A stretch of 64,000 bases of DNA from an uncultured Opitutia bacterium (GTDB taxonomy: Bacteria > Verrucomicrobiota > Verrucomicrobiia > Opitutales > Opitutaceae). Positions 20,283 through 63,982 of the stretch are shown piece after piece. The translations under genes and the position numbers were made by a program. Each line of letters opens with the position of its first letter. The stretch's first letter is position 1. Where the stretch lies: positions 8,231-72,230 of the forward strand of contig CAIJZY010000048.1 in the NCBI GenBank assembly GCA_903825285.1. The letters run 5' to 3'. The notes under the pieces were generated by a model that worked only from the letters and a program-made list of their open reading frames with translations, made no database searches and was not told the origin of the DNA.

Positions 20283-20403
20283 GGGGAGGCGGCAAAGCTA
20301 GACCGCGCCCAGACCCGGAACCAGCGGAAAACATGCGGCCGGGTGGGGCAGAGCGGCCACAACCGGCATTGACCCGTGCGGGGGGCTGTTTTTTAACCTG
20401 CCC

Positions 20404-21489: not shown

Positions 21490-21534
21490 GATTTGATGTG
21501 CTATCGGCCGCCGAACGGCTAGATTCCCCTCACC

Positions 21535-28677: not shown

Positions 28678-28746
28678 TAACAGGAGTCATCAGCCGGCGC
28701 GGGGCGGGCGGTTTACCCTTGCGGGAAGGCGGAATCCATCGCCACG
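28678..28746 (-). promoter_or_regulatory. Fluoride riboswitch (crcB RNA motif)
   Basis: The minus strand reads GGCGAUGGAUUCCGCC-UUCCCGCAAGGGU-AAACCGCC...GGCUGAUGACUCCUG, about 30 nt upstream of the crcB AUG. This matches the conserved GGCGAUG..CCGCC / AAACCGCC / GGCUGAUG..CCU core of the fluoride riboswitch as I recall it. Confidence 0.8.
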
Positions 28747-28830
28747 GCGGAGTCAATCGCCTGGCCGCCGGTTGGCAAGCCGCGCGATTGTGGCTCGAAA
28801 ATCCGGGGGCGGGCCGGCACATTCGCCGCG

Positions 28831-32980: not shown

Positions 32981-33056
32981 GTGGCGGGTCCCGTTCGCCA
33001 TTGCGTCGGTGCGCGGCGTCCTGAAACCTCCGGCCAATCCCAATTTGCCCGCACCC

Positions 33057-49119: not shown

Positions 49120-49170
49120 TCGCGGTGTTAAATAATCACAACAGGGTGTGAGAAACCCACCCCGCGCCCC

Positions 49171-49974
49171 GTGACGCCCTCCGCCCGCCGGCAGTTCATC
49201 TCGGACCACCTCGAGCAGGCGGGCGCGGGCACGTATGACGGGCTGGCGGCGGCCCTGGGGGTCTCGGCCATGACGATCCGGCGGGACCTGGAGGGGCTGG
49301 TCGCGGCGGGCCGCGCCATCCGGACGGTCGGCGGCGTGCAGCGCGCGGCCGCGCCCTCCTACCTGCTCGAGACCGCCCTCCATGCGCGGCTCGGCGTGCA
49401 GCGCGAGGCCAAGCGCGCCATCGCGCGGCGCGCGCTGGAACTGGTCACCGGCCGGCCGACGCTCTTCCTGGACGGGAGCACGACCTGCCTGGAACTGGCG
49501 CGGCTGCTGGCGCGGGAGCGCCAGGGCCTGACGATCGTCACAAACTCGGCGCTGGTCTGCCTGGAGCTGGGGCGGGGCGGCGGCCACGCGGTCACCGGCC
49601 TCGGCGGCCGCTATGACCCCGACAGCCTGAGCTTTGTCGGCGCGCCGGCGGAGGACGCGGCCGCGGCGCTGTTCGTGGACCTGGCGTTTGTCAGCACCAA
49701 GGGCTTCCTGCCGACGAAGGGCACGTTCGAGTCGGCGCTGCCCAACTTCCGCCTCAAGCAGATCATCGCGCGCCAGTGCGGAAAGCTCGTTCTGCTCGCC
49801 GACCACACAAAGTTCGGCCAGCGGGCCCTGAGCAAGGTCCTCGACCCCGCGCAGATCCACACGGTGGTCACGGACCAGCGGCCGCGGCGGCCGGACCTGG
49901 CCGCGCTCGCCAAGGCGGGCTGCGCAGTGCTGGTGGCCGCCCCCGCGGCCGGAAAGGCTTCCCATGCCACTTGA
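49171..49974 (+). CDS. DeoR-family transcriptional regulator
   Basis: GTG start. The HTH region is [22 protein letters not shown], followed by a DeoR C-terminal sugar-phosphate sensor domain (LFLDGSTT...VSTKG). Confidence 0.85.
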
Positions 49975-50851
49975 ATCCATCGCCACGCTGCTGGCGCGCG
50001 CCCGGGCGGGCGGCTACGCGCTCGGTTATTTCGAAAGCTGGAACCTGGAGTCGCTGCAGGGCGCCGTGGACGCCGCCGAGGCGGCGCGCTCGCCGATCAT
50101 CCTGGGCTTCAACGGCGACTTCCTCAGCCGGCCCGGCCGCCTCGCCGCGGAGCGGCTCGACTGGTACGGCGCGCTGGGGCGCGCGGCCGCGATGTCGGCC
50201 ACCGTGCCGTGCGGCCTGATCTTCAACGAATGCCCGGACGACGCCTGGGTGGGCCGGGCCGCGGACGCGGGCTTCAACCTGGTCATGCCCGCCGACCCGG
50301 CCGCGCCGCCCGAGGAGTACCAGCGGCGCGTGGCGGCCCTCGTGCGCCACGCCCACGCGCGGGGCGTCGCGGTCGAGGCCGAGCTGGGCGAACTGCCCTG
50401 CGGCGCCGGTGGCGGCGAGGCGGCCGGCGGCGCCATGACCGATCCCGAGGCCGCCGCGCGCTTCGTGGCCGGCACCGGCGTGGACCTCCTTGCGGTGAGC
50501 GTGGGCAACGTCCACATCAAGCTCCGCGGCGAGCAGCCGCTCGACCTGCGCCGGCTGGAGGCGATCCGCCGCCGCGTGGACATCCCGCTCGTGCTGCATG
50601 GCGGCACCGGCATCGACCAAGCCTCGCTGCGTGCCGCCATCGCGTTGGGCGTGGCCAAGGTCAATTACGGCACCTACCTCAAGCAGCGTTACCTGGCCGC
50701 CGTCCGCGCCGCGCTGGCGGTGGACGAGCCCAACCCGCACGAGCTGCTCGGGCTGGGCGGGCCGCGCGACGTGATGGGAATCGGCCGCCGCGCGGTGCGC
50801 GACGCCGTGCTGGAGCGCATCGGCAGCCTCGGCGGCAGCGGAAAGGCCTGA
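49964..50851 (+). CDS. Class-II (ketose-bisphosphate) aldolase family homolog with a non-canonical active-site motif
   Basis: Colinear with GatY/KbaY-type aldolases: [34 protein letters not shown]. The canonical LHLDH segment reads LIFNE here. Confidence 0.8.
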
Positions 50852-50854
50852 CCC

Positions 50855-52918
50855 GTGAACCATCCCGCCGCCCTCGACCTCTCCTCCGACCTGCCGAGCC
50901 GTCCAGTGATCGCCAACGCGATCCTGGCCGTGGCCGTGGGCAACCGCGGCACCGTCGCGCGGCCCGCCTTCCACGTGCGCGCCGTGGCCAGCGCGGAGGG
51001 CGGCGCGTGGCGGGGTTTGCTGGACGGCGCCGCCGAGGGCGAATTCATCACTTCGCTCGGCGCCCTCGATGCCGACGCGTGCACCGTGCAGCGCATGTCC
51101 GACGGCGGCTGGGAGCTCCGGCTGACCGCGTCGGGCGAGGCCTGGACGGCGAGCGAGGTCATCACTGTGCCCGCGGGCGAGGCGCCCATCTGCCGGCGGC
51201 AAACGTACACCTTCAATCGCGCCTGCGCCGCGTCCCTGTCGCCCGGCTTCCGGCTCGTGGCCGATCCCGCGGTGCGCTACACCTGCCCGCTGCAGGCCCA
51301 CGAGCGGCCGCTGGCGGAACTGCGGCCTTTCCGCCCGGCGGTGGACTGGGCGCTACCGTTTCCCTTCCATTTCTGGCACGACGGGCGCCGGGTCGCGATC
51401 TACGGCGTGGATCGGACCGCCTCGCGCGGCACACTCGACCTCGCGCCCGAGTCCGGTTGCGGCGCCCGGCTGCGCGTGCATTTTCCCGACACCGCGGTGC
51501 AGCCGCCCGGCGGCGTGCCGGCGGCGTCGCCGGGCACCACGGATTTTCGCACGGGCGACACAGTCACGCTCACCGAGGTGATCGCGGTCCGGGCGCTGGC
51601 GGCCGGGGACGAGCCCTGGCTCGAGGCGGAACGGTTGGCGGCGGCGCTGCTGCTGCGCACCCCGCCGCGGGCGATGGACGCGGCGGCGGTCGCGGCGGGA
51701 ATCGCGGCGTTCTACCCGCGCTGCGGCCTCTGGGAGCCCGACGCGCTCGGGCCGGGCCGTGGCTGGTTCAGCAACATGTGGGTACGCACGCAGACCGGGC
51801 CGGCGAAGCGGCGCGGCGAGATGAGCGGCTATTTCGACCTCGGGTGGGGCGAGGGCATCGCGGTCGAGATCTGGATGGGCGTGGTGCGGCACTGGCTCCG
51901 CACCGGCGACACCGGGTTGCTGTCCTACCTCGACACCATGACCCGCAGCCTCGACTGCTTCCGGCGTCCCGGGGGCCCGGCGGGCGCATACTACGACCGC
52001 AGCGACGGCCAACGGTACGGCGACTTCCTGATCGACCATGTGCCGGGCGGACGGATCTGGTCGCACTCGCTCGCGCACACGGGCAGCCAGCTTATCCAGC
52101 TTTACCAGCTGGCCCCGGCGTACCCGGATGCGGCAACGCGGCGGGCCTGGCTCGACGCGGCGACCGCGATGGGCGGGTACCTCGCGGGGCTGCAGCGGCC
52201 GGACGGCGACCTGCCGGACATCCTCGACGACGCCGACCGCGAGGCGAACCACAAGCCCCACCGCATCGCGGCGCGCGCGGTGGCCTGCGGCCTGTGGGTG
52301 CGGCTCGGGACGGTGTCCGGCGACACGGCGTGGCTCGAGCGCGCGCGGCGGCTGGCGGCGTTTCTCGCGCCCGAGATTGGCCGCTACGAGTTCTACAACC
52401 AGATGCTCGACGGCATCATCGCGGCGGACCGGGAGTTCGTGGACGGGGAGGCGTCGTGCTACGTGCTCGAGGGACTTGTGCCGCTCTACGCCGCGACCCG
52501 CGACCCGGCGGTGCTCGCGCTCTGCCGGAAGGCGGCGGCGTTCGCCTTCGCGTGGACCTATTTCTACGACCTGCCGCACGCGCACCGCGGCGTGGCGCGC
52601 GGCGGGCAGTGCTGCCGGATGGACGACTACCCGCTGCTGTACCCGATCGGCCCGGCCAAGGCGATGGAGCCCGTGCTCGCGCTGGCGCGGCTCACCGGCG
52701 ATCCGCTCTACGCCACGCTCGCGGCGGAGATGGCCGCGTTCATCGGCGCCTGGCAGATCGACGCGCCCGGCGAGCCGTGGCACGGCGGCATGGTCCACGC
52801 GCTCGGCCAGTTCTCCGGCCGGCACTGGGGGCCCGACCTCGCCGGGCAGGTGGACACCGGCATGGCCACGGGCAACAGCCTGGCCGCCCTTGAATGCTGG
52901 CTGGCGCGCGACGCCTGA
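50855..52918 (+). CDS. Hypothetical cytoplasmic protein, 687 aa; the C-terminal half looks alpha/alpha-toroid (six-hairpin) like
   Basis: GTG start 3 nt after the aldolase-like stop. No signal peptide. The C-terminal half is rich in W/Y/D-containing helical repeats, as in six-hairpin glycosidases and lyases. I recognise no family. Confidence 0.6.
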   Translation: MNHPAALDLSSDLPSRPVIANAILAVAVGNRGTVARPAFHVRAVASAEGGAWRGLLDGAAEGEFITSLGALDADACTVQRMSDGGWELRLTASGEAWTASEVITVPAGEAPICRRQTYTFNRACAASLSPGFRLVADPAVRYTCPLQAHERPLAELRPFRPAVDWALPFPFHFWHDGRRVAIYGVDRTASRGTLDLAPESGCGARLRVHFPDTAVQPPGGVPAASPGTTDFRTGDTVTLTEVIAVRALAAGDEPWLEAERLAAALLLRTPPRAMDAAAVAAGIAAFYPRCGLWEPDALGPGRGWFSNMWVRTQTGPAKRRGEMSGYFDLGWGEGIAVEIWMGVVRHWLRTGDTGLLSYLDTMTRSLDCFRRPGGPAGAYYDRSDGQRYGDFLIDHVPGGRIWSHSLAHTGSQLIQLYQLAPAYPDAATRRAWLDAATAMGGYLAGLQRPDGDLPDILDDADREANHKPHRIAARAVACGLWVRLGTVSGDTAWLERARRLAAFLAPEIGRYEFYNQMLDGIIAADREFVDGEASCYVLEGLVPLYAATRDPAVLALCRKAAAFAFAWTYFYDLPHAHRGVARGGQCCRMDDYPLLYPIGPAKAMEPVLALARLTGDPLYATLAAEMAAFIGAWQIDAPGEPWHGGMVHALGQFSGRHWGPDLAGQVDTGMATGNSLAALECWLARDA

Positions 52919-52933
52919 CCCGACGCTTTTCCC

Positions 52934-53326
52934 ATGGATCTCGAATTCAAGATGCCGGACCTGGCCACGACCGACTCCACCATCAAGGTGATCCGCTGGC
53001 TCGCCGTCGCCGGGCAGCCCGTCACCCGCGGCCAGGCGCTGCTCGAGGTGGAGACCGACAAGTCCGCCATGGAGGTGGAGGCGATCGCCACCGGACGGCT
53101 GAAGTCCATCCACGCCCAGCCGGGCGACGCGCTCCTCGCCGGCCAGCTCATCGCGGTGATCGAGGTCGAGGGCAGCGCCCCGGCGCCGACTCTCGCGCCC
53201 CCGCCGGCCGCGGCCGTGCCTCCGCCCCCGACGGTGCCGGTCGCCGCTCCCGTGATTCCGCGCGCGCCCGCCGGCGGGATGTTTGCCAAGAACCGCGCCG
53301 CGGCCCGCCGGCCGGAGACACCCTGA
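52934..53326 (+). CDS. Stand-alone lipoyl-attachment domain protein (E2-type lipoyl domain plus Pro/Ala linker only)
   Basis: The lipoyl-lysine motif is in FKMPDLATTDSTIKVIRWLAVAGQPVTRGQALLEVETDKSAMEVEA. It is followed by a PA-rich linker, and the ORF ends after 130 aa with no acyltransferase domain. Confidence 0.8.
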   Translation: MDLEFKMPDLATTDSTIKVIRWLAVAGQPVTRGQALLEVETDKSAMEVEAIATGRLKSIHAQPGDALLAGQLIAVIEVEGSAPAPTLAPPPAAAVPPPPTVPVAAPVIPRAPAGGMFAKNRAAARRPETP

Positions 53327-53342
53327 AACCGAGAACTTCCCC

Positions 53343-54542
53343 ATGACCATCGCCCCCGCTGAACTGGAACCCGAACTGGCCGAAGCCTACCGGCAGAGCG
53401 CCGACAAAAGCGTCCTCGCGGCGCTCAACCCGAAGATCTTTTTCGGCTATTTCTCCGTGTGCGCGGACCCCTCGCAGGGCCACGGCTTCAACACCACCTT
53501 CCCCGGCCTCGACTGGGGCCAGTCCGCCGAGGCGCTGCTCTGGCTCGGCCGGCGGGCGGAGGTGCTCGCCAGCTGGGAGTACGTGAAGACCTTCCTGCGC
53601 GAGGACGGGCTGCTGCCGTTCGCGATCGTGCCCGACCAGGCGGGAACCACGACGCAGATGGCGCTGCCGAAGCACACCCAGACGTACCCGTTCACGGTCG
53701 CCGCGAATGGCGGCGCGTACTGTCACTGGTTCCCGGGCAACCCGCTGATGATGCTGCCGAACGTCACGTTCCTGCAGATGGCGGACGCGATTTACCACCA
53801 CACCCGCGACGACGCCTGGCTGGCGGCGCAGCGGCCGATCCTGCGGCGGGTGACGGACTGGATGGCGCAGCAGGTGACGCCGGAGGGGCTCGTGCGCGGC
53901 GGTGGCTTCTACATCGAGCGGCCCCCGCGGCTGGAGTTCGACGGCGTGACGCAGTGCTACACGGCGCATGCGTTCCGCCTGGCGGCGGCCCTGGTGGGCG
54001 AGCCGGCCTATGCGGCGGTCGCGGACAAGATCACAATGTGCTTCCGCCGCGAGTTCTGGGCGGGGGATCACTGCGTCGAGTACATCAACGGCGAGCGCGG
54101 CAAGATCTCGCACCACGGTCTGACCGACGTGGACTGGGCCGCCATCGCCACCGGCGTGGCGACGCCCGAGCAGGTGAAGATCCTCTGGCCGCAGCTGCGC
54201 GCGAACGCCGACTTTGTCTACAACGGCATCCCGACCGGCATCTCCACGCGGCCCGAGACGTACGAGGACTGGGAGATGCTGTTCCTCGACCGCCACGACC
54301 TGGCCGCGATGGGCCGGGTCTGGTACCTGGAGGCGTGGGCCCGCTCCCGGATGGGCGACCGCGCGGGCCTGCTCGAGTCGCTGCGCCAGGTGGCGCGCGT
54401 CGGCAAGGGGGACAACTGGTACTGGCGCGAACGCTACTACTCCGAGCGGAGCGGCGACCTCTGCAGCTATCGCATCAACACGTACTGCGAGTACCCGGCG
54501 ACGTTCATCCGCGTCGTCCACCGCTTCGTGCTCGGCGCCTGA
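53343..54542 (+). CDS. Hypothetical cytoplasmic protein, 399 aa, probable (alpha/alpha)6 glycosidase-like fold
   Basis: The track ORF is trimmed to the ATG at 53343. No signal peptide. It is helical-repeat rich and reminiscent of GH63/GH78/debranching-type six-hairpin domains. This assignment is tentative. Confidence 0.5.
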   Translation: MTIAPAELEPELAEAYRQSADKSVLAALNPKIFFGYFSVCADPSQGHGFNTTFPGLDWGQSAEALLWLGRRAEVLASWEYVKTFLREDGLLPFAIVPDQAGTTTQMALPKHTQTYPFTVAANGGAYCHWFPGNPLMMLPNVTFLQMADAIYHHTRDDAWLAAQRPILRRVTDWMAQQVTPEGLVRGGGFYIERPPRLEFDGVTQCYTAHAFRLAAALVGEPAYAAVADKITMCFRREFWAGDHCVEYINGERGKISHHGLTDVDWAAIATGVATPEQVKILWPQLRANADFVYNGIPTGISTRPETYEDWEMLFLDRHDLAAMGRVWYLEAWARSRMGDRAGLLESLRQVARVGKGDNWYWRERYYSERSGDLCSYRINTYCEYPATFIRVVHRFVLGA

Positions 54543-54547
54543 CCGCC

Positions 54548-57500
54548 ATGAGCGCCACCGCCCGGCCATTCTTTTCCGCGTCCGCGGCGCACCTCGCCGG
54601 CGACCCGGGCCCGTTGCGGGAGCCCGGGCAGGTGGTGGAGGCCGTCTATCGGCGCGAGGGCCGCCTCAGGTATGCCGCGGAGGATCGCGCGATCGTCGGG
54701 CGCAATGGGAAATATTTCAATAATCGCCCGCTCTACTGCGCGGCCAATACCGACGGCGCCGCACTCGCAGGGGATCGCCCGCTGGTGCGACTCATCGCCA
54801 AGCCGTTTTTGCACGGCGCTTGGACCCTCGCGATTATTCGCCAGGAGAGGGCCGTCTGGCTGCACGACTTTGCCGAAATCGAGTCGCGCTATCGTTGCGG
54901 CAGCATGACCTGGCATTGTGCCGACTCCGCCTTCCCCGGCCTGGAGGTGGCCCTCCGGGTGGTGCCGCTGGCCGAGACCGCCGGCTTCGCCGCGCGGCTG
55001 CAGGTGGCCGGTGGACGCGTCGGTGACCAGCTGCTCTGGAGCTTCGGCGGCGCGCGGCGGGAGGAGGGCGACCCGCGGTGGAACTGGGACCCGGTCATGT
55101 GCGGCAATCCCGAATTTCGGCGTACCGGCGATCCGCGACGGCCGCTGCTGTTTCAAGGGATGGTCCCCGAATTCAGCGAGGGGAACAAGGCGACGATTGA
55201 CGGGCCGCACTTTCGGCTGATGGCCACGGCTGACGCCACGCACGTCGTCACCGGAAGGGGCAGCCGGACGGACCAGCTGAAGATCGGCGATGCCGCCGGT
55301 TCGACGAATCCCCGGCAGTTGGTGGCCTCGGCTCCGGGCGAGGCGCCCGTGGTTGTCGGCTCCGTTAACCTGGCCGCCCCGCGGGATGAGTGGTTTTTCT
55401 CCTGCGAAACCTCCCCAGTCGGCGCGACGTCGCCTGGCCAGGGGATCGCGGATCCTGCTCAGGCATTCGCCGCGGGCGCGGCCTATCTCGGCGAAGTCGA
55501 GCGCCTGCAGGTGACGAGCCCGGATGAACGGTTGAATGCCGCGGTCGCGGCCGTCTGCCACGCCGTGGATGGAAACTGCGAGCGCGACACGCACATCTTC
55601 CGCCATGGCTGCATGGCCTTTAATTGCCGTTTTGTCGGCTGGCGGGTGATCTGTGGCGCCACGGCGCTCGGCTGGCACGAGCGGGTGCTGGGCAACGCCC
55701 GCTACACCATCGGCCTGCAAAAAAAATCCGACCCGGACCGCCTTCACGCCGCCACGAACGAGCAGCATCTGCACATGCACGAGGGCAAGAACTCGCGCAT
55801 CCACGGCCGCGGCTCGCTCGACCGGGAGTTCATGGTGTACGATGTGCAGTCGCAGTTTTTTGACCAGACCCTCAGCGACTGGCGCGCCACCGCGGACCCG
55901 GCGATGGAGCAGCTCCTGCGGCCGGCGCTGGAGCTGCACGTGGAGTGGCTGAAGGACTGTTTCGATCCCGACGACGACGGGCTGTACGAGAGCTACATCA
56001 ACACGCTCCCCACCGACTCGGTGTGGTATAACGGCGGCGGCAGCGCCGAGGCTTCCGCCTATGCGTTCACCGCGCATCGCGCGGCGGCGGACCTGGCGCG
56101 GCGCGCGGGTGATACCGTCGCCCTCGACCGTCATCTGGCTCAGGCGGACAAGATCCAGCGGGCGATGCGCGAGCTCCTCTGGGTGAAGGACCGCGGGCAT
56201 TTCGGCGCGTATCGCGAGCAGGGCGGCCTCGGCCGGCTCCACACCGACGCCTGGACCTACAGCGTCTTTCTCCCGATTGACGCCGGCCTCACCTCGGCGG
56301 AGGAGGCCCTGCAGTCGCTGTATTCCACCGAGTGGGACCTCGAGCGCATACCCCTGCCGTTCGGGGGCGAGCTCTGCCAGCTGTCCAACTGGGTGCCGTG
56401 GAAATGGTCGGTCCGCGACATGTTTGGCGGCGACATGTTCGCCCTCGCGCTGGCCTATTTTCAGACCGGACTCGGTGACGCCGGCTACCAGCTGCTGCAG
56501 GGCGCGATGCTTGAGGGCGCGTTCGCCAGCGCGGTGCCGGGCGGCTTCAGCCACATCGGGGCGGCGACGGATTTCGGCGACAACGCGCATATGTTCGCGC
56601 GCACGGTGGTCGAGGGACTGTACGGCTATGCGCCCGATTACCCGAACAACCGGGTGCTGATCCGCCCGGCATTGCCGACGAGCTGGCCGGCCGCGGCGAT
56701 TGCCACGCCCGATTTCAGCCTCGATTTTCGCCAGGACGGCGCGACCGACCGCTACCGCCTGATGCTGACGAAGCCCGCCGAGGTCGTTTGCCGCCTTCCC
56801 CTCCGGGCCGAGAAAATCCTCCGCGTCACCCTCGACGGGCGTGAAATCACCGGGCGGACCGAGGCTGGCTTCGGTTTCACCGTGCTGGAAATCAAGGCCC
56901 CCGCGGGAGTAAGCTTCGAGTTGGCCATCGAGCTGGAGCACCGGGTTCCGCAGAGTGAACCCATCCGCCTCGCGGGCTGCGTGGGTGACAACGTGGTTTT
57001 GCAGGTGCCGGGAGGTGCCCCGCAGTCCTGGCGGGACTTGCACGACGTGCTGGAGGGTGCCCGCCCCGACAGTTCCGCCCTCGCTGGTCGGCTGGCAGCG
57101 AAGTCCGGGCATCACCTCGTGCTGGCGCATTGCCGCTGCGGGGAGTTGCCCCGCTGGCAGGTCTTCCAGCTGCAGATTACCGATCCCGCCGCCAGTATCG
57201 CGCGCCGCGCGCGCACGCCCCGCGAGCCGGTCCCGTCGGCGGGGTGGGAGTGCCTGGACCTCTCGGCGCATTACAACGGCGACGTCCGCACCATCTTCCA
57301 GCAGCGCTATCTCTCCCCGCGTCCGGCGACCTGCTCGGTGCGACTGGGCAGCGATGGCTATTCCGCCTGGACGTTTCCCTACTGGAACCTGCACGCGCCA
57401 AAGATCGACCTCAGCGCCGTGGCCCAGCTGGCCGACGCGCCCGGCCGGATCATGACCCCCGCGCGCGTGCCCTTCACGCGGTTTGCCGAGGATCGGAACA

Positions 57501-57916
57501 TCGCGTTCACGTCCCGCTGGGACAACTGGCCGACCGCCGTGGAAATTCCGATCCAGCGGAAGGCGTCCACGATCTGGCTGATGGTGTGCGGCACGACCTT
57601 CCCGATGCAGACGCGCATCGCCAATGCCGAATTCCGTTTCCGCTACGCCGACGGGCTGGTCGAAAAACTCGAGCTGATCCCGCCGGATAATTTCTGGATG
57701 CTCTGCCCATGGGGCGGCGAGGATTACAATTATGCGCATGATGGGTTCTGCCTGCCGCCGGAGCCGCCGCCGCAGGTCCAGCTCGGCGCGAACTGCCGCG
57801 CGATGGTGCTCTCGTGGCGGCTGCGCGCCGGCGCACAGCTTGAGAGCGTCACGCTCGAAACCCTGTCCCAGGATGTCGTCATCGGCCTGATGGGCCTGAG
57901 CCTGGAGACGACCTGA
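54548..57916 (+). CDS. Large hypothetical cytoplasmic protein, 1122 aa, beta-rich N-terminal region plus central six-hairpin-like domain plus beta-sandwich C-terminus
   Basis: The track ORF is trimmed to the ATG at 54548, 5 nt after the previous stop. No signal peptide. The domain impressions come from sequence composition only. Confidence 0.6.
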   Translation: MSATARPFFSASAAHLAGDPGPLREPGQVVEAVYRREGRLRYAAEDRAIVGRNGKYFNNRPLYCAANTDGAALAGDRPLVRLIAKPFLHGAWTLAIIRQERAVWLHDFAEIESRYRCGSMTWHCADSAFPGLEVALRVVPLAETAGFAARLQVAGGRVGDQLLWSFGGARREEGDPRWNWDPVMCGNPEFRRTGDPRRPLLFQGMVPEFSEGNKATIDGPHFRLMATADATHVVTGRGSRTDQLKIGDAAGSTNPRQLVASAPGEAPVVVGSVNLAAPRDEWFFSCETSPVGATSPGQGIADPAQAFAAGAAYLGEVERLQVTSPDERLNAAVAAVCHAVDGNCERDTHIFRHGCMAFNCRFVGWRVICGATALGWHERVLGNARYTIGLQKKSDPDRLHAATNEQHLHMHEGKNSRIHGRGSLDREFMVYDVQSQFFDQTLSDWRATADPAMEQLLRPALELHVEWLKDCFDPDDDGLYESYINTLPTDSVWYNGGGSAEASAYAFTAHRAAADLARRAGDTVALDRHLAQADKIQRAMRELLWVKDRGHFGAYREQGGLGRLHTDAWTYSVFLPIDAGLTSAEEALQSLYSTEWDLERIPLPFGGELCQLSNWVPWKWSVRDMFGGDMFALALAYFQTGLGDAGYQLLQGAMLEGAFASAVPGGFSHIGAATDFGDNAHMFARTVVEGLYGYAPDYPNNRVLIRPALPTSWPAAAIATPDFSLDFRQDGATDRYRLMLTKPAEVVCRLPLRAEKILRVTLDGREITGRTEAGFGFTVLEIKAPAGVSFELAIELEHRVPQSEPIRLAGCVGDNVVLQVPGGAPQSWRDLHDVLEGARPDSSALAGRLAAKSGHHLVLAHCRCGELPRWQVFQLQITDPAASIARRARTPREPVPSAGWECLDLSAHYNGDVRTIFQQRYLSPRPATCSVRLGSDGYSAWTFPYWNLHAPKIDLSAVAQLADAPGRIMTPARVPFTRFAEDRNIAFTSRWDNWPTAVEIPIQRKASTIWLMVCGTTFPMQTRIANAEFRFRYADGLVEKLELIPPDNFWMLCPWGGEDYNYAHDGFCLPPEPPPQVQLGANCRAMVLSWRLRAGAQLESVTLETLSQDVVIGLMGLSLETT

Positions 57917-57934
57917 GTCCATTCGCGCACCGCC

Positions 57935-60520
57935 ATGAGCCAGCCCGACTTTTATTTCACGCTCCTCAACCACTGGAGCTACACCGGCATCGGCTGGAAC
58001 CTGGGACTCGAGTCCTGCGCGCAGTCCATCACCGACAGCCTCGACATGGCGGACTACGCGCCGAGCGTGAAGACCGGCATCAACCTCGATGCGCTGACCT
58101 ATGAGTTGGTGGCCGAGTGGTACCCCCACGTGGTGCGCCGACTGCAGCGCTACCTCGATGCGGGCCGCGTTGAGATCGTGGGCGGCACGTTCGGCCAGCC
58201 GATGGGCTCGATGGTTTCCGGCGAGTCCAACCTCCGGCAGCTGGCCGTGGGCCAGCAGACCATCCGCCGCGTCCTGGGCCGTCCCGTGGCCGTCTTCCTC
58301 GAGGAGGAGGAGATGAGCCATCCGCAGATTCCGCAGCTGCTCGCACTGACGGGCTACCGCTACGCGAGTTTGGCGCAGTGTGACACCTGGGGCCGGCACG
58401 GCGCGCCGTGCGTGGAGGAGCCGGTCATCTGGTGGGAGGGCGTGGACGGCACGCGCATGCTCGCGGTCCCGGCCAGCCCGCTGGTGTTCCACCCGCCGAT
58501 GGTCACGCACGACATCGACTGGCTCTGGAGTGACGCCGGCCGAGCCATGCTCGCGCGGATGGGACGCGACCGGGTGCCACTGGCGCTGAAGTGGACCGAA
58601 TTCGGCTGGGAGAAGCTGACGGGCAAATCCATCAACAAGTTCGACCCCGAGCTCTTCAAGGTGCTCTCGGCAAAATTCCACGTCGAGTACCTCACGGTCG
58701 AGCAGTACCTCGACCGGCAGGCCGCGACGGCCTCGAGCGTGCCAGTGCAGCGGCTGGTGGCGGACGATTTCGCGAAGTTGCTCCCGTGGGGCATCGGCGG
58801 CGACCAGATCCGACGGTTCGGCCGCGAGGTCGAGGCGGTGCTGCTGGCCGCCGAGCGGTTCGAGGCGGTGGCCCAGGCGCTGCGGCTCGGCGGCGACGAG
58901 GCCGAGACCCTGCGGCGCGCGTGGCGCAACCTGCTCGCGGCGCAAAGCCACGATGTTTCACTCTGCGAATACACGCGTCACCAGGGCGCCACGCCGCCGG
59001 TCGATCCGGTGCTCGACGCGCATTTCCAGACCTGGGGCTCGTATGGCTACCGCGCGATGGACGACGCGATGGACGCGGGCCGCGGCGTGCTGCGCCGCGC
59101 GCAGGAGGCCATCGCCGGAGCGGTCGCCACGGGCCCGGCCGGCCCCGGCCGCATCGCCGCCGTGGTCTTCAATCCCTGCGGCTTCGCGCGCGACACGCTG
59201 ATCACGACCGGCACCCTGCAGCTGGAGGAGTTTGGCGGCACCGCGGTGCAGGTGCGCAACGCCGCCGGCGAGCCGGTGCCCGCGCAGCTCCTCACGAGCG
59301 AGCGCACGGCGGACGGCCGGCTGGTCTGCGCCGAGGTCGCCTTCCCGGCCCGCGCGCTGCCCTCGGTCGGGTACGAGGCTTTTCGACTGGAGGTCACGAA
59401 CACCGCGTCCGCCGCGCCGGTCACCGACCTGCGCGTGGACCGCGACGCGCTCGTGCTGGAGAACACCCACGTGCGGGTCGCGCTCGATCCCGTCAGCGGC
59501 GCGATCCGCAGCCTGCTTGACCGGCGCAGCGGCCGGGAGCTGCTGCAAGGCGCCGAGCGGCCGTTCCCGACGCTGACCGGCGAGGCCAACGGCTCGTCGC
59601 CGCTGGCGCGGCCGCCGCGCACGCCGGTGGAGCCGTACCACACCGCCCGCACCCAGGCGCAGATCGCCTGGCTCGAGACCGGGCCGCTGCGCGCCCGCGT
59701 GCGGGCCATGCACCCGGAGACGCGCGGGCTGCGCTTCGAGATCACGGTCACGCTCGCGGCGCAGTCGCCGGACGTGGATGTCCAGGTGCGCGTCTTCCCC
59801 GACCTGCCGCCGAAGACCGGCGAGGCGAAGATCAACGGCTGGCAGTTCCCGCTGACGATCGAGGAGGGCTACTGGCTCGAGCTCGTGCCGGCGTTCCCGG
59901 TGGCGACCGTGCTCCGCGACTATCCCTTCGGCGCGGAGACCGGCGGCAAGGCGGCGGTCACGGCGCTGACCTGGCTCGACCTGATGGCGGCGGACGGCAG
60001 CGGGCTGCTGCTCGTCCACAGCGGCACGCAGTATTTCCAGCGCCGGCCCGACGGCACGTTCGCCAACCTCGTCGTGCGCGAGTGGGAGTCGCATTTCACC
60101 GGGGAGTTCGGCTGGCCGCGGACCTGCGTCTACCGCTACGCGCTGCGGCCGCACGGCCCGGGGTTCGCGACCGCGGACCGCGTGCGGACGGCGCAGGCCT
60201 TTGACCAGCAACCCCGCTGCGTCGTGACGGCCCCGCACCCCGGCGCGCTGCCGCCGCGCGGCGGCTTCCTCGCGGTCGAGGGCGACGGCGCGGTCCTGTC
60301 CGCCTTCCGCCGTCCGGACGCGGGCGATCCCCGCTGCGAGGTCCGGGTGGTCGAGTGCGACGGCCAGGCAGGGAAGGCGCGGCTGGTCACGACGCTGCCA
60401 TTGACGTCGCGGCAGGCGACGGACGCACTGGGCCGGACCCAGGGCGGGCCGGCGGCCGCGCTGGCGGACGGCTTTACCCTGCGTCCGTGGGAGATCAAAA
60501 CCCTTACCCTGCATCCATGA
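57935..60520 (+). CDS. GH38-like (alpha-mannosidase-fold) protein with non-canonical catalytic motifs
   Basis: 861 aa. It appears colinear with bacterial cytosolic GH38 enzymes, for example GRVEIVGGTFGQPMGSMVSGESNLRQLAVGQ compared with the GH38 G.W...D.n..sgEslvRQ block. The metal-binding and nucleophile positions appear substituted. Confidence 0.6.
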   Translation: MSQPDFYFTLLNHWSYTGIGWNLGLESCAQSITDSLDMADYAPSVKTGINLDALTYELVAEWYPHVVRRLQRYLDAGRVEIVGGTFGQPMGSMVSGESNLRQLAVGQQTIRRVLGRPVAVFLEEEEMSHPQIPQLLALTGYRYASLAQCDTWGRHGAPCVEEPVIWWEGVDGTRMLAVPASPLVFHPPMVTHDIDWLWSDAGRAMLARMGRDRVPLALKWTEFGWEKLTGKSINKFDPELFKVLSAKFHVEYLTVEQYLDRQAATASSVPVQRLVADDFAKLLPWGIGGDQIRRFGREVEAVLLAAERFEAVAQALRLGGDEAETLRRAWRNLLAAQSHDVSLCEYTRHQGATPPVDPVLDAHFQTWGSYGYRAMDDAMDAGRGVLRRAQEAIAGAVATGPAGPGRIAAVVFNPCGFARDTLITTGTLQLEEFGGTAVQVRNAAGEPVPAQLLTSERTADGRLVCAEVAFPARALPSVGYEAFRLEVTNTASAAPVTDLRVDRDALVLENTHVRVALDPVSGAIRSLLDRRSGRELLQGAERPFPTLTGEANGSSPLARPPRTPVEPYHTARTQAQIAWLETGPLRARVRAMHPETRGLRFEITVTLAAQSPDVDVQVRVFPDLPPKTGEAKINGWQFPLTIEEGYWLELVPAFPVATVLRDYPFGAETGGKAAVTALTWLDLMAADGSGLLLVHSGTQYFQRRPDGTFANLVVREWESHFTGEFGWPRTCVYRYALRPHGPGFATADRVRTAQAFDQQPRCVVTAPHPGALPPRGGFLAVEGDGAVLSAFRRPDAGDPRCEVRVVECDGQAGKARLVTTLPLTSRQATDALGRTQGGPAAALADGFTLRPWEIKTLTLHP

Positions 60521-61521
60521 ACCCGACCCTGTCACCGTCCCCGGCCGCCGCCGCGCTCCTGCGCGGGTCCGACCGGAACATCCTCCTCGGCCTCTACGAG
60601 AAGCTCGTGCTCATCCGCGAGTTCGAGGAGCGCGTGAAGTTCCTGTTCCTCGAGGGCACGATGCCCGGCACGATCCACCAGTGCCAGGGCCAGGAGGCCA
60701 CGGCGGTCGGCGTGTGCGCGGCGCTGCGGTCCGACGACTTCATCACCTCGACCTTCCGCGGCCACGGCCACGCGCTCGCGAAGGGCCTCGGCGTGCAGGA
60801 GATGCTCGACGAGCTGTTCGGCGCGTCCACCGGCTGCTGCAAGGGCAAGGGCGGTTCCATGCACATGGGCAACATGGACCGCGGCATGGTGCCCGGCATC
60901 GCGATCGTGGCGGGCGGCATCCCGCTGGCCGCCGGCATGGCGCTCGCGTTCAAGCTCCAGCAGCGGCCGCAGGTCGTCGCGTGCTTCTTCGGCGACGGCG
61001 CGGTGGCGGAGGGCGCGTTCCACGAGGGCGTGAACATGGCCGCGCTCTGGAACCTGCCGGTCGTGCTGGTCTGCGAGAACAACCTCTACGGCGCCTCGAC
61101 GCGCATCGACAAGGTGATGAAGAATCCCTGCGTGGCCGACCGCGCGGCGGCGTACGGCTTCCGCGGCGAGACGGTGGACGGCAACGACGTCCTCGCCGTG
61201 CTCGCGGCGGCGCAGCGCGCCGTGGCGGAGTGCCGCGCGGGGCAGGGGCCGGTGCTGCTTGAGCTGCTGACCTACCGGCGGACCGGTCACTCGCGCCGCG
61301 ACGCCTGCCACTACCAGCCGAAGGACGAGCGCGAGGCGTGGTTCGCCCGCGACCCGATCGAGCGCTTCGCCGCGCAATTGGCCGAGCGCGGCGACGTGAC
61401 CCCGGCGGACCTCGCCGCGATCCGCGCCCGGGTGGAACAGCAGATCGCGGCCGCCGTGGCCGTCGCCCAGCGCGCGCCGCAGCCCACCTTGGCGGACCTC
61501 ACCACCGACGTGTACGCCTGA
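60517..61521 (+). CDS. TPP-dependent 2-oxoacid/acetoin dehydrogenase E1 component, alpha subunit
   Basis: ATGA overlap with the previous gene. The TPP motif is GDGAVAEGAFHEGVNMAALWNLPVVLVCENN, and YRRTGHSRRD is present. Confidence 0.9.
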   Translation: MNPTLSPSPAAAALLRGSDRNILLGLYEKLVLIREFEERVKFLFLEGTMPGTIHQCQGQEATAVGVCAALRSDDFITSTFRGHGHALAKGLGVQEMLDELFGASTGCCKGKGGSMHMGNMDRGMVPGIAIVAGGIPLAAGMALAFKLQQRPQVVACFFGDGAVAEGAFHEGVNMAALWNLPVVLVCENNLYGASTRIDKVMKNPCVADRAAAYGFRGETVDGNDVLAVLAAAQRAVAECRAGQGPVLLELLTYRRTGHSRRDACHYQPKDEREAWFARDPIERFAAQLAERGDVTPADLAAIRARVEQQIAAAVAVAQRAPQPTLADLTTDVYA

Positions 61522-61529
61522 ATTTGCCC

Positions 61530-62357
61530 ATGAGCACATTACCCCTGACGGAATTGACGGACCCGGAGCGCCGGCTGGCGGCGGCCCAGTATGAACGCGA
61601 TGGCTTTTTTCTCGCCCCGGCGCTCATCCCGCCGGAGCTGCTCGCCCGCGTGCGGCCGCGGATCGACGCGGTCTACGCCGGCGAGTACGAGACCGGCCGC
61701 ACGCCCGAGGGCGCCCCGCCCGGCCGCAAGGAGCCGCCGACCTCGCTCGTGAAGATCAACAACGCCCATTGCTCGGACCGCACGATCCACGAGTTTGTCA
61801 CGCACCCCGCGATCGGCCGCTGGGCGGCGGCGCTGACCGGCAGCAAGTGGGTGCAGGTGTTTGCGACCCAGATGCTGATCAAGCCCCCCGGCAGCCGCGA
61901 CAACGGCAACGTCGGCTGGCACCAGGACTACGAGTACTGGGACGGTGCGTTCACCGGCGAGGTGTTCACGGCGTGGGCGGCGGTGAGCGACGTCACGGCC
62001 GAGTCCGGCCCGATGCGCTTTGTGCCCGGCTCGCAGAACTGGGGCCTGCTGAAGGCCGGCGACTTCTACGGCCGCGACCTCGACGTGGTGAAGCGGCGCC
62101 TGCTCGAGAAGAGCGGCGCGACCGAGTGGCGCGAGGTGGCGGCGGTGCTGCCGCCGGGCGGTGTGAGCTTCCACGACAAGCTCACCGTGCACGGCAGCGG
62201 TCCCAACCTCGCCGCCGGCCCGCGCGTCAGCTTCGCCATCCACCTCCGCACCGAGCGCTCCGCGCTACGCGATGGCGTGAAGTGGAGCGACATCCCGTTC
62301 CTCAACGACCTCGACGACCCCTGGGACAGTCCGGTCTACGGCGAGAAATCCACCTGA
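61530..62357 (+). CDS. Phytanoyl-CoA dioxygenase (PhyH) family Fe(II)/2-oxoglutarate oxygenase
   Basis: The track ORF is trimmed to the ATG at 61530. YERDGFFLAP..., VGWHQDYEYW (the HxD iron ligands), FHDKLTVHGSGPN and RVSFAIHL form the PhyH pattern. Confidence 0.85.
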   Translation: MSTLPLTELTDPERRLAAAQYERDGFFLAPALIPPELLARVRPRIDAVYAGEYETGRTPEGAPPGRKEPPTSLVKINNAHCSDRTIHEFVTHPAIGRWAAALTGSKWVQVFATQMLIKPPGSRDNGNVGWHQDYEYWDGAFTGEVFTAWAAVSDVTAESGPMRFVPGSQNWGLLKAGDFYGRDLDVVKRRLLEKSGATEWREVAAVLPPGGVSFHDKLTVHGSGPNLAAGPRVSFAIHLRTERSALRDGVKWSDIPFLNDLDDPWDSPVYGEKST

Positions 62358-62361
62358 ACCC

Positions 62362-63378
62362 ATGAAACGACAAGGCATCGCAGAGGCGCTTCGCGACGGC
62401 ATCGCGGAGGAAATGACCCGGGACCCCAGCGTGTTCTGCATCGGCGAGGATATCGGCGTGCCGGGCGGGTGGGGCGGGGCCTTCACGGTCACGCTCGGGC
62501 TCGCGGAGAAATTTCCCGGCCGCATCATCGACACGCCGATCGCCGAGCTGGGCTTCACCGGCGTGGCGGTCGGGGCGGCGATGATGGGCATGCGGCCGAT
62601 CGCGGACGTGCAGTACGGGGATTTCCTCTTCCTCGCCAGCGACCAGCTGATCAACAACGCCGCCAAGCTCCGCTACATGTCGGGCGGCACCGTGAAGGTG
62701 CCCCTCGTGATGCGCGCGCCGATCGGCGCCACGGGCCGCGGCTCGCAGCACGCGCAGAGCATGGAACGCTACTTCACCGGCGTGCCGGGCCTGAAGGTCG
62801 TGGCCGTCTCCACCGCCTACGACGCGAAGGGGATGCTCAAGGCCGCGGTGCGCGACGACAACCCGGTGATGATCTTCGAGCACAAGCTGCTCTACGGCTC
62901 CAAGGGCGCGCGCGCCGAGCCCGGCGCGGTGGACGCCACCAGCGAGATTCCCGACGACGACTACGTGGTCCCGCTCGACCGCGCGGTCGTCCGCCGCGAG
63001 GGCACGCACGTCACGATCCTCGGCTGGCTGCTGATGGCGCACTTCGCGCAGGCCGCGGCCGCCCAGCTCGCCGCCGAGGGCATCGAGGCCGAGGTGATTG
63101 ATGTCCGCAGCCTGTCCCCGATCGACTACGAGACCATCGGCGCCTCGGTCCGCAAGACCGGCCGCGTCGTCATCGTCGAGGAGGGCCCCAAGACCGGCGG
63201 GGTCAGCGCCGAAATCGCCGCCGGCATCATGGAGCACTGCGCCGACAGCCTCCAGGCCCCCGTCACCCGCGTGGCCTCGGCCGATGTGCCGGTGCCGTTC
63301 ACCCCCATCCTGGAAAACGCCTACCGGCCCGACGTGCCCCGGATCGTCGCCGCCGTGCGGCAGCTGGTGGGGAGCTGA
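62362..63378 (+). CDS. TPP-dependent dehydrogenase E1 component, beta subunit (transketolase-like)
   Basis: IGEDIGVPGGWGGAFTVTLGL...IDTPIAELGFTGVAVGAAMMGMRPIADVQYGDFL is canonical E1 beta. 338 aa. Confidence 0.92.
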   Translation: MKRQGIAEALRDGIAEEMTRDPSVFCIGEDIGVPGGWGGAFTVTLGLAEKFPGRIIDTPIAELGFTGVAVGAAMMGMRPIADVQYGDFLFLASDQLINNAAKLRYMSGGTVKVPLVMRAPIGATGRGSQHAQSMERYFTGVPGLKVVAVSTAYDAKGMLKAAVRDDNPVMIFEHKLLYGSKGARAEPGAVDATSEIPDDDYVVPLDRAVVRREGTHVTILGWLLMAHFAQAAAAQLAAEGIEAEVIDVRSLSPIDYETIGASVRKTGRVVIVEEGPKTGGVSAEIAAGIMEHCADSLQAPVTRVASADVPVPFTPILENAYRPDVPRIVAAVRQLVGS

Positions 63379-63398
63379 ATCCGAAACGAATCGGATTC
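63377..63398 (+). terminator. Hairpin GAATCCGA-AACGAA-TCGGATTC overlapping the E1 beta stop codon
   Basis: Perfect 8-bp stem with no T-run. It lies in the only sizeable gap (61 nt) of the operon. Confidence 0.3.
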
Positions 63399-63439
63399 CA
63401 ATTCGTGCCCATAAGCGCAAATTAGCGGTTCCTCTTCCC

Positions 63440-63982
63440 ATGATCACCAAAGTCGAACTCAAGCAGCGTCAGGATGAGGCGTTCGCCTTCTTTCGGAAGG
63501 CCGGCCTCGTCATCACCCCCGCCGAACACGCACAGATCGAGGTCGCCGACTTCGGGCTGAGCGAGTTCACGCGCACGGGCCTGGGCGTGCTGGTCTACGT
63601 CAACACGCTTCGCTGCTGCGCGAAGGAACTCGCGATGTGGCCGCGCCAGACGTGCCCGGAACACCGCCATCCCAATGTCCGCGGGCAACCCGGCAAGGAG
63701 GAGACGTTCCGCTGCCGCTGGGGCCGCGTCTACCTCTATGTCGAGGGCGCGCCGGCCGCGGCGCCGCACTGCCGCCCGCCCGCGGGCCGCGAGGCGGCCT
63801 ACACGGTCTGGCACGAGGTCGTGCTGCAGCCGGGCGAGCAGTACACCATCCAGCCGAACACCAAGCACTGGTTCCAGGCCGGCGACGAGGGCGCGGTGGT
63901 GTCCGAGTTCTCCACCCACAGCACGGACGAGAACGACGTCTTCACCGACTCCGCCATTGGCCGCGAAACCAAGATTCTCTGA
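63440..63982 (+). CDS. D-lyxose/D-mannose ketol-isomerase family cupin
   Basis: IEVADFGLSEF...VYVNTLRCCAKELAMWPRQTCPEHRHP...GKEETFRCRWGRVYLYVEG...YTVWHEVVLQPGEQYTIQPNTKHWFQAG closely follows the YdaE-type lyxose isomerase sequence as I remember it. Confidence 0.85.
   Translation: MITKVELKQRQDEAFAFFRKAGLVITPAEHAQIEVADFGLSEFTRTGLGVLVYVNTLRCCAKELAMWPRQTCPEHRHPNVRGQPGKEETFRCRWGRVYLYVEGAPAAAPHCRPPAGREAAYTVWHEVVLQPGEQYTIQPNTKHWFQAGDEGAVVSEFSTHSTDENDVFTDSAIGRETKIL

Follow-up and report, generated by a model that had tools for sequence, protein, structure and literature searches.

Closest described systems and the proposed function

In Caldicellulosiruptor bescii, a DeoR-regulated operon (Athe_0702-0706) carries acoC-, acoL-, and acoA-like genes together with rhaR2 and rhaA, and adjoins lipB/lipA, fucA, and rhaD; its acetoin dehydrogenase-like complex was predicted to oxidise L-lactaldehyde in rhamnose/fucose catabolism, and the same aco-like genes are also listed as having no specific function assigned (Rodionov et al. 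2021, PMC8579813). The idea of an aldehyde-oxidising acetoin dehydrogenase-like complex in DeoR-regulated deoxyhexose catabolism is already published, as a prediction rather than an experiment. Here, we describe an eleven-gene cluster at positions 49171-63982 of a 64,000-nucleotide (nt) stretch of DNA from an uncultured Opitutia bacterium (contig CAIJZY010000048.1; the whole stretch is referred to as the window), which can be likened to the RhaR2 operon by gene content, as both place an acetoin dehydrogenase-like E1/E2 (with E3 in C. bescii) under a DeoR-family regulator in a sugar locus. The C. bescii locus has E3, lipB/lipA, the L-rhamnose isomerase RhaA, and RhaD/FucA aldolases, whereas the window has a cupin of the D-lyxose/mannose type, a class-II aldolase of the fructose-bisphosphate aldolase (FBA) family, a PhyH-family dioxygenase, and GH38-type enzymes.

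Other described systems resemble other portions of the cluster. The D-lyxose isomerase locus of E. coli O157:H7 (ECs_5068-5073; Z5688 enzyme) likewise encodes a Lyx_isomer cupin, a class-II aldolase, and a PfkB kinase (ECs_5068-5070), but it lacks E1/E2, glycosidases, and a DeoR regulator and has an ATP-binding cassette (ABC) transporter; the window's cupin is of the short (180-aa) type, and its aldolase is 37% identical to the aldolase beside the O157 isomerase. To our knowledge, nothing has been worked out of the E. coli O157 lyxose pathway beyond the isomerase. E. coli encodes its lactaldehyde and glycolaldehyde dehydrogenases elsewhere in the genome. The E. coli ydj cluster also combines a DeoR regulator (YdjF), a PfkB kinase (YdjH), and a class-II aldolase (YdjI), the last of which, according to the Raushel laboratory, reportedly splits a ketose 1-phosphate into dihydroxyacetone phosphate (DHAP) and an aldehyde; unlike the window, it has higher-carbon keto-uronic acid substrates and no such isomerase, E1/E2, or glycosidases. 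Acetoin dehydrogenase (AcoABCL) and pyruvate dehydrogenase (PDH) complexes share with the cluster heterotetramer-type E1 alpha and E1 beta with a thiamine pyrophosphate (TPP) motif, the ETDK lipoyl lysine, and, in relatives of the window, an E2 made of lipoyl and 2-oxoacid_dh domains. In contrast to those complexes, the window's genes belong to a sugar operon with a DeoR regulator, in which a dioxygenase gene separates E1 alpha from E1 beta. Moreover, the window's E2 lacks the catalytic and subunit-binding domains, there is no E3 gene, and its E1 alpha scores under the PDH equivalog cut-off. Finally, cytoplasmic GH38 mannoside loci of Firmicutes also have GH38 enzymes without signal peptides that act on imported oligosaccharides, whereas the window joins three glycosidase-like families without Pfam/CAZy-type assignment to an E1 module, and in one of its two GH38-type proteins the canonical catalytic motifs are missing. 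The first-pass annotation, made from the letters alone, had stated that it knew of no characterised catabolic route combining these parts, and our literature search likewise found no characterised pathway for this gene combination; searches on DUF4450, on lyxose isomerase with GH38, and on acetoin dehydrogenase with Opitutaceae returned nothing.

The features of the cluster are as follows (aa, amino acids; scores are Pfam bit scores unless stated otherwise).

49126-49153, + strand: conserved upstream motif, candidate promoter/operator, in the 132-nt pyrH-deoR intergenic region
49171-49974, + strand: DeoR-family transcriptional regulator, 267 aa (HTH_DeoR 41.7 bits, DeoRC 132 bits)
49964-50851, + strand: homologue of class-II (metal-dependent) ketose-phosphate aldolases, 295 aa (PF01116 190.7 bits, full length)
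50855-52918, + strand: 687-aa protein whose family has no name, beta-sandwich at the N-terminus and an (alpha/alpha)6 barrel (AlphaFold2 model)
52934-53326, + strand: lipoyl-domain protein, 130 aa, an E2 cut off after the linker (Biotin_lipoyl 62 bits)
53343-54542, + strand: 399-aa glycosidase-like protein with an (alpha/alpha)6 barrel, family without a name (AlphaFold2 pLDDT 87)
54548-57916, + strand: 1122-aa protein, DUF4450 plus an MGH1-like (GH63-type) six-hairpin segment (PF14614, PF22422)
57935-60520, + strand: 861-aa GH38/GH57-like protein with non-canonical catalytic motifs (weak Pfam matches)
60517-61521, + strand: E1 alpha subunit, TPP-binding, 334 aa (E1_dh 269 bits)
61530-62357, + strand: PhyH-family Fe(II)/2-oxoglutarate dioxygenase, 275 aa (PF05721 91 bits), between E1 alpha and E1 beta
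62362-63378, + strand: E1 beta subunit, 338 aa (Transket_pyr 145 bits, Transketolase_C 127 bits)
63440-63982, + strand: D-lyxose/D-mannose-family cupin isomerase, short type, 180 aa (PF07385 28 bits, cut-off 20.8)

Our best explanation of the whole, to which we assign a probability of roughly 40%, is a DeoR-controlled glycoside-utilisation operon in which E1 and the lipoyl protein would oxidise an aldehyde co-product. It has two parts: (i) a cytoplasmic glycosidase-like set, assigned at the level of domains and folds, of two GH38-type proteins and the 687-aa, 399-aa, and 1122-aa proteins; and (ii) a portable module kept across phyla, consisting of isomerase, PfkB kinase, class-II aldolase, and a PDH/acetoin dehydrogenase-like E1 alpha/beta plus E2. 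The locus is best filed under kinds already known, as it combines a glycoside-utilisation operon with an isomerase-kinase-aldolase route and an acetoin/pyruvate dehydrogenase-like complex.

More specifically, the glycosidase-like enzymes would trim an imported oligosaccharide in the cytoplasm and release an aldose of D-manno/D-lyxo configuration at C2-C3, for which D-mannose, D-lyxose, and a 6-deoxy analogue are candidates. The cupin would convert this aldose to the 2-ketose, and a PfkB kinase, lost in this copy and hence to be supplied from elsewhere, would phosphorylate the ketose. The aldolase would then split the ketose phosphate into DHAP and a non-phosphorylated alpha-hydroxyaldehyde (glyceraldehyde, glycolaldehyde, or lactaldehyde), E1 would take up the aldehyde on TPP and reductively acylate the lipoyl-lysine, and, where an E2 catalytic domain exists, the acyl group would pass to CoA. 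As only the lipoyl domain is left in this genome, acyl off-loading and re-oxidation would have to use a trans-acting E2 and E3. The PhyH protein, an add-on specific to Verrucomicrobia, would probably modify the sugar ahead of its entry into the module, for example by demethylating, epimerising, or oxidising it.

Conservation and separability of the two parts

To compare gene neighbourhoods, we used the 687-aa family as an anchor, scanned one genome per species, and ran the window's proteins by tblastn against the loci obtained. Thirty-five loci encoding the family (designated by L numbers) were recovered, and in 12 of them a gene for E1 alpha and/or beta lies within 10 kb of the 687-aa gene (7 in Verrucomicrobia, 2 in Chloroflexota, and 1 each in Victivallales, Latescibacteria, and Actinomycetes). 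Conserved co-localisation in relatives and across phyla, the check that the first-pass annotation had itself proposed, indicates that the cluster is not a chance juxtaposition. The whole cluster occurs in metagenome-assembled genomes (MAGs) of Opitutae/Verrucomicrobia. Beyond Verrucomicrobia, E1-bearing loci were found in Victivallales (L019), Chloroflexota (L028, L029/L041), Latescibacteria (L033/L004), and, in a looser form, Actinomycetes (L040). An aldolase and a lipoyl/E2 protein accompany E1 in L019, L029, and L033; a DeoC/LacD-type aldolase takes the place of the class-II enzyme in L028, for which no E2 match was obtained, and L040 has an E2 and no aldolase match.

The core that recurs comprises DeoR, class-II aldolase, PfkB, E2, E1 alpha/beta, and the D-lyxose/mannose isomerase, and across phyla the 687-aa gene is the one most tightly linked to these catabolic genes. 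In Latescibacteria the order is GH38, 687-aa, PfkB, aldolase, E1 alpha, E1 beta, full E2, Lyx_isomer; in Thermoflexales it is E2, E1 beta, E1 alpha, followed in divergent orientation by aldolase, Lyx_isomer, PfkB, the 687-aa gene, and GH127. A member of the isomerase family, short or long (223-233 aa), lies in the cluster of Thermoflexales, Latescibacteria, Anaerolineae, and Lacunisphaera, and the long-type enzymes in L027 and L046 share 45% identity with ECs_5070.

Each part of the locus also stands alone. In Lacunisphaera, the catabolic genes occur by themselves in the order DeoR-aldolase-PfkB-E2-E1 alpha-E1 beta-lyxose isomerase, flanked by GH29 fucosidases, a DeoC/FbaB-type aldolase, an RPE-family gene, an Aldolase_II+SDR fusion, major facilitator superfamily (MFS) transporters, and an aldo-keto reductase, and the locus also holds a phosphofructokinase (PFK); that the module stands there with other glycosidases indicates that it is an autonomous catabolic unit. 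In rumen Clostridia, it is the glycosidase part that occurs alone, as a GH38/687-aa/GH38-like triad accompanied by an ABC importer and a surface protein. We conclude from these two settings that two separable modules have been fused in the locus. Around the catabolic module, the glycosidases swap between GH38, GH29, GH42, GH123, and GH127. The genes directly upstream of the clostridial triad (L036, 3824-7171; L037, 2-2326) encode large proteins that combine a 3-keto-disaccharide-hydrolase-like domain with InlB B-repeats, which may be extracellular enzymes feeding the rumen system.

At the protein level, E1 beta sequences of Verrucomicrobia share 92-96% identity, and identity to the copies from Chloroflexota and Victivallales is 75-77% for E1 beta and 68-71% for E1 alpha. 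This cross-phylum identity of 68-77% suggests that the module has been shared horizontally between phyla. Its carriers (Verrucomicrobia, Lentisphaerae, Latescibacteria, Chloroflexota, and possibly Actinomycetes) are key glycan degraders in lakes, soils, and guts.

The closest syntenic relative is L047, which has the downstream GH38 and sensor kinase genes in common with the window and, in addition, three PhyH paralogues and an Aldolase_II+SDR fusion between the cupin and GH38 genes. Such fusions, of the rhamnulose-phosphate aldolase/lactaldehyde dehydrogenase type, lie beside the module in L028, L042, L046, and L047; together with the GH29 genes beside it in relatives, they tie the module to deoxyhexose metabolism.

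The aldolase, isomerase, and E1/lipoyl proteins

The domain calls of the first-pass annotation were each confirmed with Pfam and NCBIfam. The aldolase scores far under the equivalog cut-offs (170 vs 423; TIGR01859, 164 vs 343; TIGR00167, 144 vs 216), and its nearest solved structures are the FBAs 7nc7/3q94, followed in third place by YdjI (6ofu); judged by these scores, it is a divergent paralogue outside the FBA and tagatose-bisphosphate aldolase equivalogs. The cupin matches solved D-lyxose isomerases (7NZO, 6e-67 over residues 1-176; 2Y0O, 4.3e-64), and an H-R-H...E-E...H pattern (EHRHP, GKEETF, TKHWF) can be read by eye in its translation. No indication was seen of the branched sugar that had been suggested for this operon, the isomerase being of the D-lyxose/D-mannose type. 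A PfkB gene is absent from the window; in L006, L007, L011, L013, L015, and L042 it lies between the aldolase and 687-aa genes, and it is present in the distant-phylum loci as well. The earlier statement that no kinase, transporter, E2 catalytic domain, or E3 is visible thus holds for the operon and the window, yet the kinase is present in sister loci, and its absence here is a lineage-specific loss.

Three other candidate routes were considered. The aldolase, PfkB, and isomerase resemble those of the sulfo-EMP2 pathway for sulfoquinovose; this route was rejected, as there is no GH31-type sulfoquinovosidase, the neighbouring glycosidases are mannosidase-like, and the literature offered no link. 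An unsaturated-uronate (KduI/KdgK-like) route was hinted at by the PL27-like fold of the 687-aa protein and by pectate-lyase genes beside a Planctomycetes homologue; it was set aside by reasoning only, in that a 4-deoxy-5-keto-uronate has no C4 hydroxyl of the kind that a DHAP-type aldolase needs. An inositol-like analogy to IolB/IolC/IolJ, with E1 as the ring-cleaving enzyme, stayed speculative, as neither a dehydrogenase nor a dehydratase is conserved alongside the core.

E1 alpha scores 349 bits against TIGR03182 (PDH_E1_alph_y; cut-off 394), has human PDH E1 alpha as its best PDB match (2.7e-58), and contains the GDG...NN TPP motif in its translation; E1 beta clears the PRK09212 subfamily cut-off (340 vs 321), and some annotations label close E1 homologues acoA. 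Given that these best HMM and structure matches are PDHs, E1 alpha/beta-E2 could be a true, co-regulated pyruvate dehydrogenase that turns pathway-derived pyruvate (formed, for example, from lactaldehyde via lactate or from triose phosphate) into acetyl-CoA. The Aldolase_II+SDR fusions of relatives, which would yield lactate, one step from pyruvate, favour this explanation, as does the glycolysis-like flavour of the PFK, DeoC/FbaB-type aldolase, and RPE-family genes in Lacunisphaera. However, E1 alpha remains under the PDH equivalog cut-off, no locus has an E3 or a lactate dehydrogenase, and the E1 genes lie within the sugar module in all four Verrucomicrobia loci with a full gene listing (the window, L042, L046, and L047), a module that moves across phyla with the isomerase and aldolase. 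In addition, the Verrucomicrobia E2s have no Pfam E3-binding domain and several lineages lack the catalytic domain, which would be odd for a PDH that bears flux. Overall, we consider a true PDH fairly unlikely.

The 130-aa lipoyl protein retains the ETDK motif of the lipoyl lysine. Its alignment to the N-terminal region of the 373-aa E2 of L007 covers 153 residues, and the protein ends approximately 10 aa past the GGMFAKNRAA motif common to the two. A full E2 of 332-373 aa with lipoyl and 2-oxoacid_dh domains occupies the same position in L007, L008, L010, L046, and L047. What had been described as a free lipoyl carrier is therefore really an E2 minus its catalytic domain, of which sister loci keep the full form. 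The same short form with the same end point was found in 11 further loci (10 of them independent, since L042 duplicates the L006 locus), indicating an old, maintained architecture. No E3-binding domain was detected with Pfam in the Verrucomicrobia E2s; the E2s of Latescibacteria and Thermoflexales hold lipoyl, E3-binding, and catalytic domains. We found no E3 gene in the operon, among the open reading frames (ORFs) listed for the remainder of the window, or in the related loci with a gene listing; it may be encoded elsewhere. The conservation of an E2-less lipoyl protein raises the mechanistic question of how acyl-lipoyl is off-loaded. Two further arrangements of lipoyl domains were observed. 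In L040 (18478-19394), the lipoyl domain (~80 aa) and the E2 catalytic part are separate adjacent ORFs, which could be a split gene or a frameshift. On metagenome contigs, natural lipoyl-E1 alpha fusions (P0190 and P0209; 468 and 482 aa) are 77-83% identical to the window's E1 alpha, and one fusion gene lies directly after a class-II aldolase gene.

All genes of the cluster are under purifying selection, with ratios of nonsynonymous to synonymous substitution rates (dN/dS) of 0.04-0.36 against several relatives, including 0.14-0.21 for E1 alpha, 0.04-0.13 for E1 beta, and 0.22-0.36 for the short lipoyl protein, compared with 0.04-0.35 for all genes other than the last. Because the ETDK motif is kept and dN/dS is low, the short lipoyl protein is a maintained gene and not a pseudogene. 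These values bear on the view that the catabolic half is a decaying remnant here and only the glycosidases still matter. Compared with the syntenic L042 and L047, the window does lack PfkB, the E2 catalytic domain, and the Aldolase_II+SDR gene, but the remaining genes have intact motifs and the dN/dS range given above, the short lipoyl form ends alike elsewhere, and the same sequence is found on at least 17 metagenome contigs, so that we regard decay as highly improbable. Several of the features that seemed strangest in the locus (a lipoyl carrier that stands free, and the lack of a kinase and of an E2 core) are lineage-specific losses.

As the isomerase/kinase/aldolase trio occurs in E. coli O157 without E1, E1 more likely acts on a downstream fragment than on the sugar skeleton; the trio leaves just the aldehyde unprocessed, and by parsimony E1/E2, an add-on to the trio, would act on it. 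The first-pass annotation had instead proposed an acyloin-type C-C cleavage, in which E1 would cut the sugar itself (a 2-ketose, 1-deoxy-ketose, or branched or modified sugar) and pass a two-carbon unit to the lipoyl carrier, with PhyH tailoring. We keep this proposal as an alternative, as the E1 family includes acetoin dehydrogenase, an enzyme that cleaves an alpha-hydroxyketone, close homologues bear the acoA label, the isomerase would supply an alpha-hydroxyketone, and lipoyl-E1 alpha fusion proteins exist. The nesting of the PhyH gene between E1 alpha and E1 beta also speaks for it: the nearest solved relatives of PhyH are the sugar-modifying SnoN, SnoK, and EvdO1/O2, followed by phytanoyl-CoA dioxygenase. 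An H-x-D...H iron triad can be read by eye in the PhyH translation (WHQD, later VHGS). On the other hand, the trio is already a complete ketose route without E1, a branched sugar has left no sign, and cleavage would produce a glycolyl-thioester together with a shortened aldose, which nothing in the cluster would obviously process further. Likewise, PhyH, which that model treated as part of the pathway, turned out to be an accessory confined to Verrucomicrobia (one to three paralogues per locus, none in other phyla) and absent from the cross-phylum core. Cleavage of the sugar by E1 is, on balance, unlikely.

Beside the 687-aa gene, uroporphyrinogen-decarboxylase-family (URO-D) genes recur in anaerobic phyla (Kiritimatiellae, Anaerolineae, and Latescibacteria), whereas the Verrucomicrobia loci have PhyH genes instead (URO-D genes at L005, 10864-12069; L027, 918-2069; L045, two genes; and the contig of P0103). 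URO-D and PhyH might represent anaerobic and aerobic handling of the same sugar modification (O-demethylation).

Several points weigh against the glycoside-utilisation operon with aldehyde oxidation by E1. We know of no 2-oxoacid-dehydrogenase E1 that takes free aldehydes physiologically, and the window's E1 is closest by sequence to pyruvate dehydrogenases. PfkB, an E2 catalytic domain, E3, and a transporter are absent from the operon and the rest of the window, and the aldolase logic would need the kinase to make a 1-phosphate. Loci with Aldolase_II+SDR may already have a lactaldehyde dehydrogenase, which would weaken the need for E1/E2. At the glycosidase end, assignments rest on folds and weak HMM matches, and the GH38-like protein is without canonical GH38 catalytic motifs.

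A more specific proposal goes further: E1 alpha/beta and the lipoyl protein would form a new 2-oxoacid-dehydrogenase-type machine that takes a sugar-derived alpha-hydroxyaldehyde or ketose in place of a 2-oxoacid, yields an energy-rich acyl-thioester, tolerates loss of the E2 core (with the lipoyl carrier either free, in the manner of an H-protein, or fused to E1 alpha), and is coupled to three unassigned glycosidase-like families and PhyH, as an undescribed route for a manno/lyxo sugar, possibly 6-deoxy or O-methylated, in at least five phyla. We regard this as somewhat doubtful. If the aldehyde-oxidising role of our best explanation is right, the set would be the first PDH/acetoin dehydrogenase-type complex acting directly in carbohydrate catabolism, and it would explain how toxic aldehydes are disposed of after ketose-1-phosphate aldolases in bacteria without lactaldehyde/glycolaldehyde dehydrogenases.

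Glycosidase-like proteins, regulation, and surroundings

The first-pass annotation had recommended AlphaFold and Foldseek for the ORFs at 50855-52918 and 53343-54542, and both turned out to have glycosidase-like folds. For the 687-aa protein, sequence searches of Pfam, NCBIfam, and the PDB gave no match; its AlphaFold model (pLDDT 89) matches a PL27 Rha-GlcA lyase, AGE-family isomerases/epimerases (TM-score to target ~0.65), GH63, GH94, and GH116. Its family (107 homologues, none with a name) is small and isolated: out of 1.84 billion representatives, approximately 10 clusters at 50% identity are full-length members. The 399-aa protein, also without a Pfam match, resembles GH100 invertases, the GH63 enzyme YgjK, GH78 rhamnosidases, and MmpH (TM-scores 0.58-0.70) and has 1112 homologues, none named. 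It is 82-85% identical across most Verrucomicrobia loci and 70-75% in two, and its gene is retained in L047, from which the 687-aa and GH38-like genes are absent. The 1122-aa protein, encoded in Opitutae loci and L017, scores 58 bits with PF14614 (residues 90-285) and 27.8 bits with PF22422 (residues 501-586) and has no match in a PDB sequence search.

The 861-aa protein passes the cut-offs for GH38N (42.6 bits) and GH38C (28.5 bits), with GH57 competing at 29 bits and the GH38 middle domain at 18 bits, under its cut-off of 31. When it was aligned to five canonical GH38s, the H-W-D metal motif corresponded to N-H-W-S, and the D-x-F-G-H nucleophile motif was replaced by an L-E-E-E-E-(M/F) cluster (L-E-E-E-E-M-S-H in the window). 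Both changes are kept in orthologues (L005, L036, and L037; Kiritimatiellae and Clostridia), and the downstream 909-aa GH38 carries both canonical motifs. On this alignment, the GH38-like proteins may constitute a glycosidase family of their own in which the nucleophile is a Glu, as it is in GH57. Three families are targets for the discovery of carbohydrate-active enzymes (CAZymes): the 687-aa family, which is rare, the 399-aa family, which is large, and the GH38-like family, whose catalytic residues are altered. A simple hydropathy check revealed no classical N-terminal signal peptide in any of the proteins, as the first-pass annotation had claimed for the large ones, nor a transmembrane segment.

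The positions of the eleven tightly packed + strand ORFs were checked in the window, with starts corrected to 60517 for E1 alpha, 61530 for PhyH, and 63440 for the cupin. Recomputed intergenic gaps (in order, -11, 3, 15, 16, 5, 18, -4, 8, 4, and 61 nt) agree with the spacing described earlier; of the two ATGA overlaps reported, we found just one, between the GH38-like and E1 alpha genes (60517-60520), the DeoR/aldolase overlap being 11 nt. A promoter scan of the region returned no sigma-70-like match inside the cluster, and terminator-like matches in the region are weak and all lie within genes. Short gaps, this lack of an internal promoter match, and the gene order kept in relatives give indirect support to the prediction that the eleven genes form a single operon. 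The suggestion that it continues past 64000 was correct: near-identical metagenome scaffolds place a twelfth gene, the canonical 909-aa GH38, at 64007, 24 nt past the cupin gene, and it is followed by a 175-nt gap and then unrelated genes. Scaffolds of ENA metagenome assemblies are near-identical to the region (2 mismatches in 11.6 kb), and the E1 beta protein is encoded on the at least 17 metagenome contigs mentioned above.

On the 5' side, pyrH, frr, proB, and uvrD, housekeeping genes on the opposite strand, lie directly upstream, which sets the beginning of the cluster at the 132-nt pyrH-deoR intergenic region. The regulator belongs to the DeoR family by its N-terminal HTH_DeoR and C-terminal DeoRC sensor domains, scores under every NCBIfam equivalog cut-off, and is encoded by the first gene of the cluster in Verrucomicrobia loci and Victivallales. 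Alignment of the 160 nt upstream of deoR from 12 loci revealed a block, TTGCC-N-TGTTAA-N4-TTAACA-N6-TGTGAGA, common to the Verrucomicrobia loci L006, L007, L009-L013, L015, and L047. The window's copy is degenerate (TGTTAAATAATCACA...TGTGAGA). The palindrome within the block could be the DeoR operator; no further copy was found in the window at up to 2 mismatches. A search for riboswitches and other known RNAs gave no Rfam match in the leader or operon.

The host is a freshwater, Opitutae-type Verrucomicrobium, the nearest genome-resolved relatives of which are uncultured Opitutae/Opitutaceae MAGs. The window has a G+C content of ~70%, and its remainder is of housekeeping character (htpG, lptF/G, lpxA, infC, sufBCD, trxB, peptidases, and transporters). 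Inspection of the operon's gene starts (49150-63440) revealed no Shine-Dalgarno-like purine run and, before every start, a C-rich stretch (...CCC/CC). Elsewhere in the window, three ORFs with high G+C at third codon positions have no Pfam match at E <= 1e-4 (28681-30471, 32919-34667, and 21523-22161; 596, 582, and 212 aa, respectively), and a 447-aa xylose-isomerase-like TIM-barrel protein (18954-20297, - strand) has a 3-dehydroquinate-synthase-family gene (20302-21489, + strand) as its divergent neighbour.

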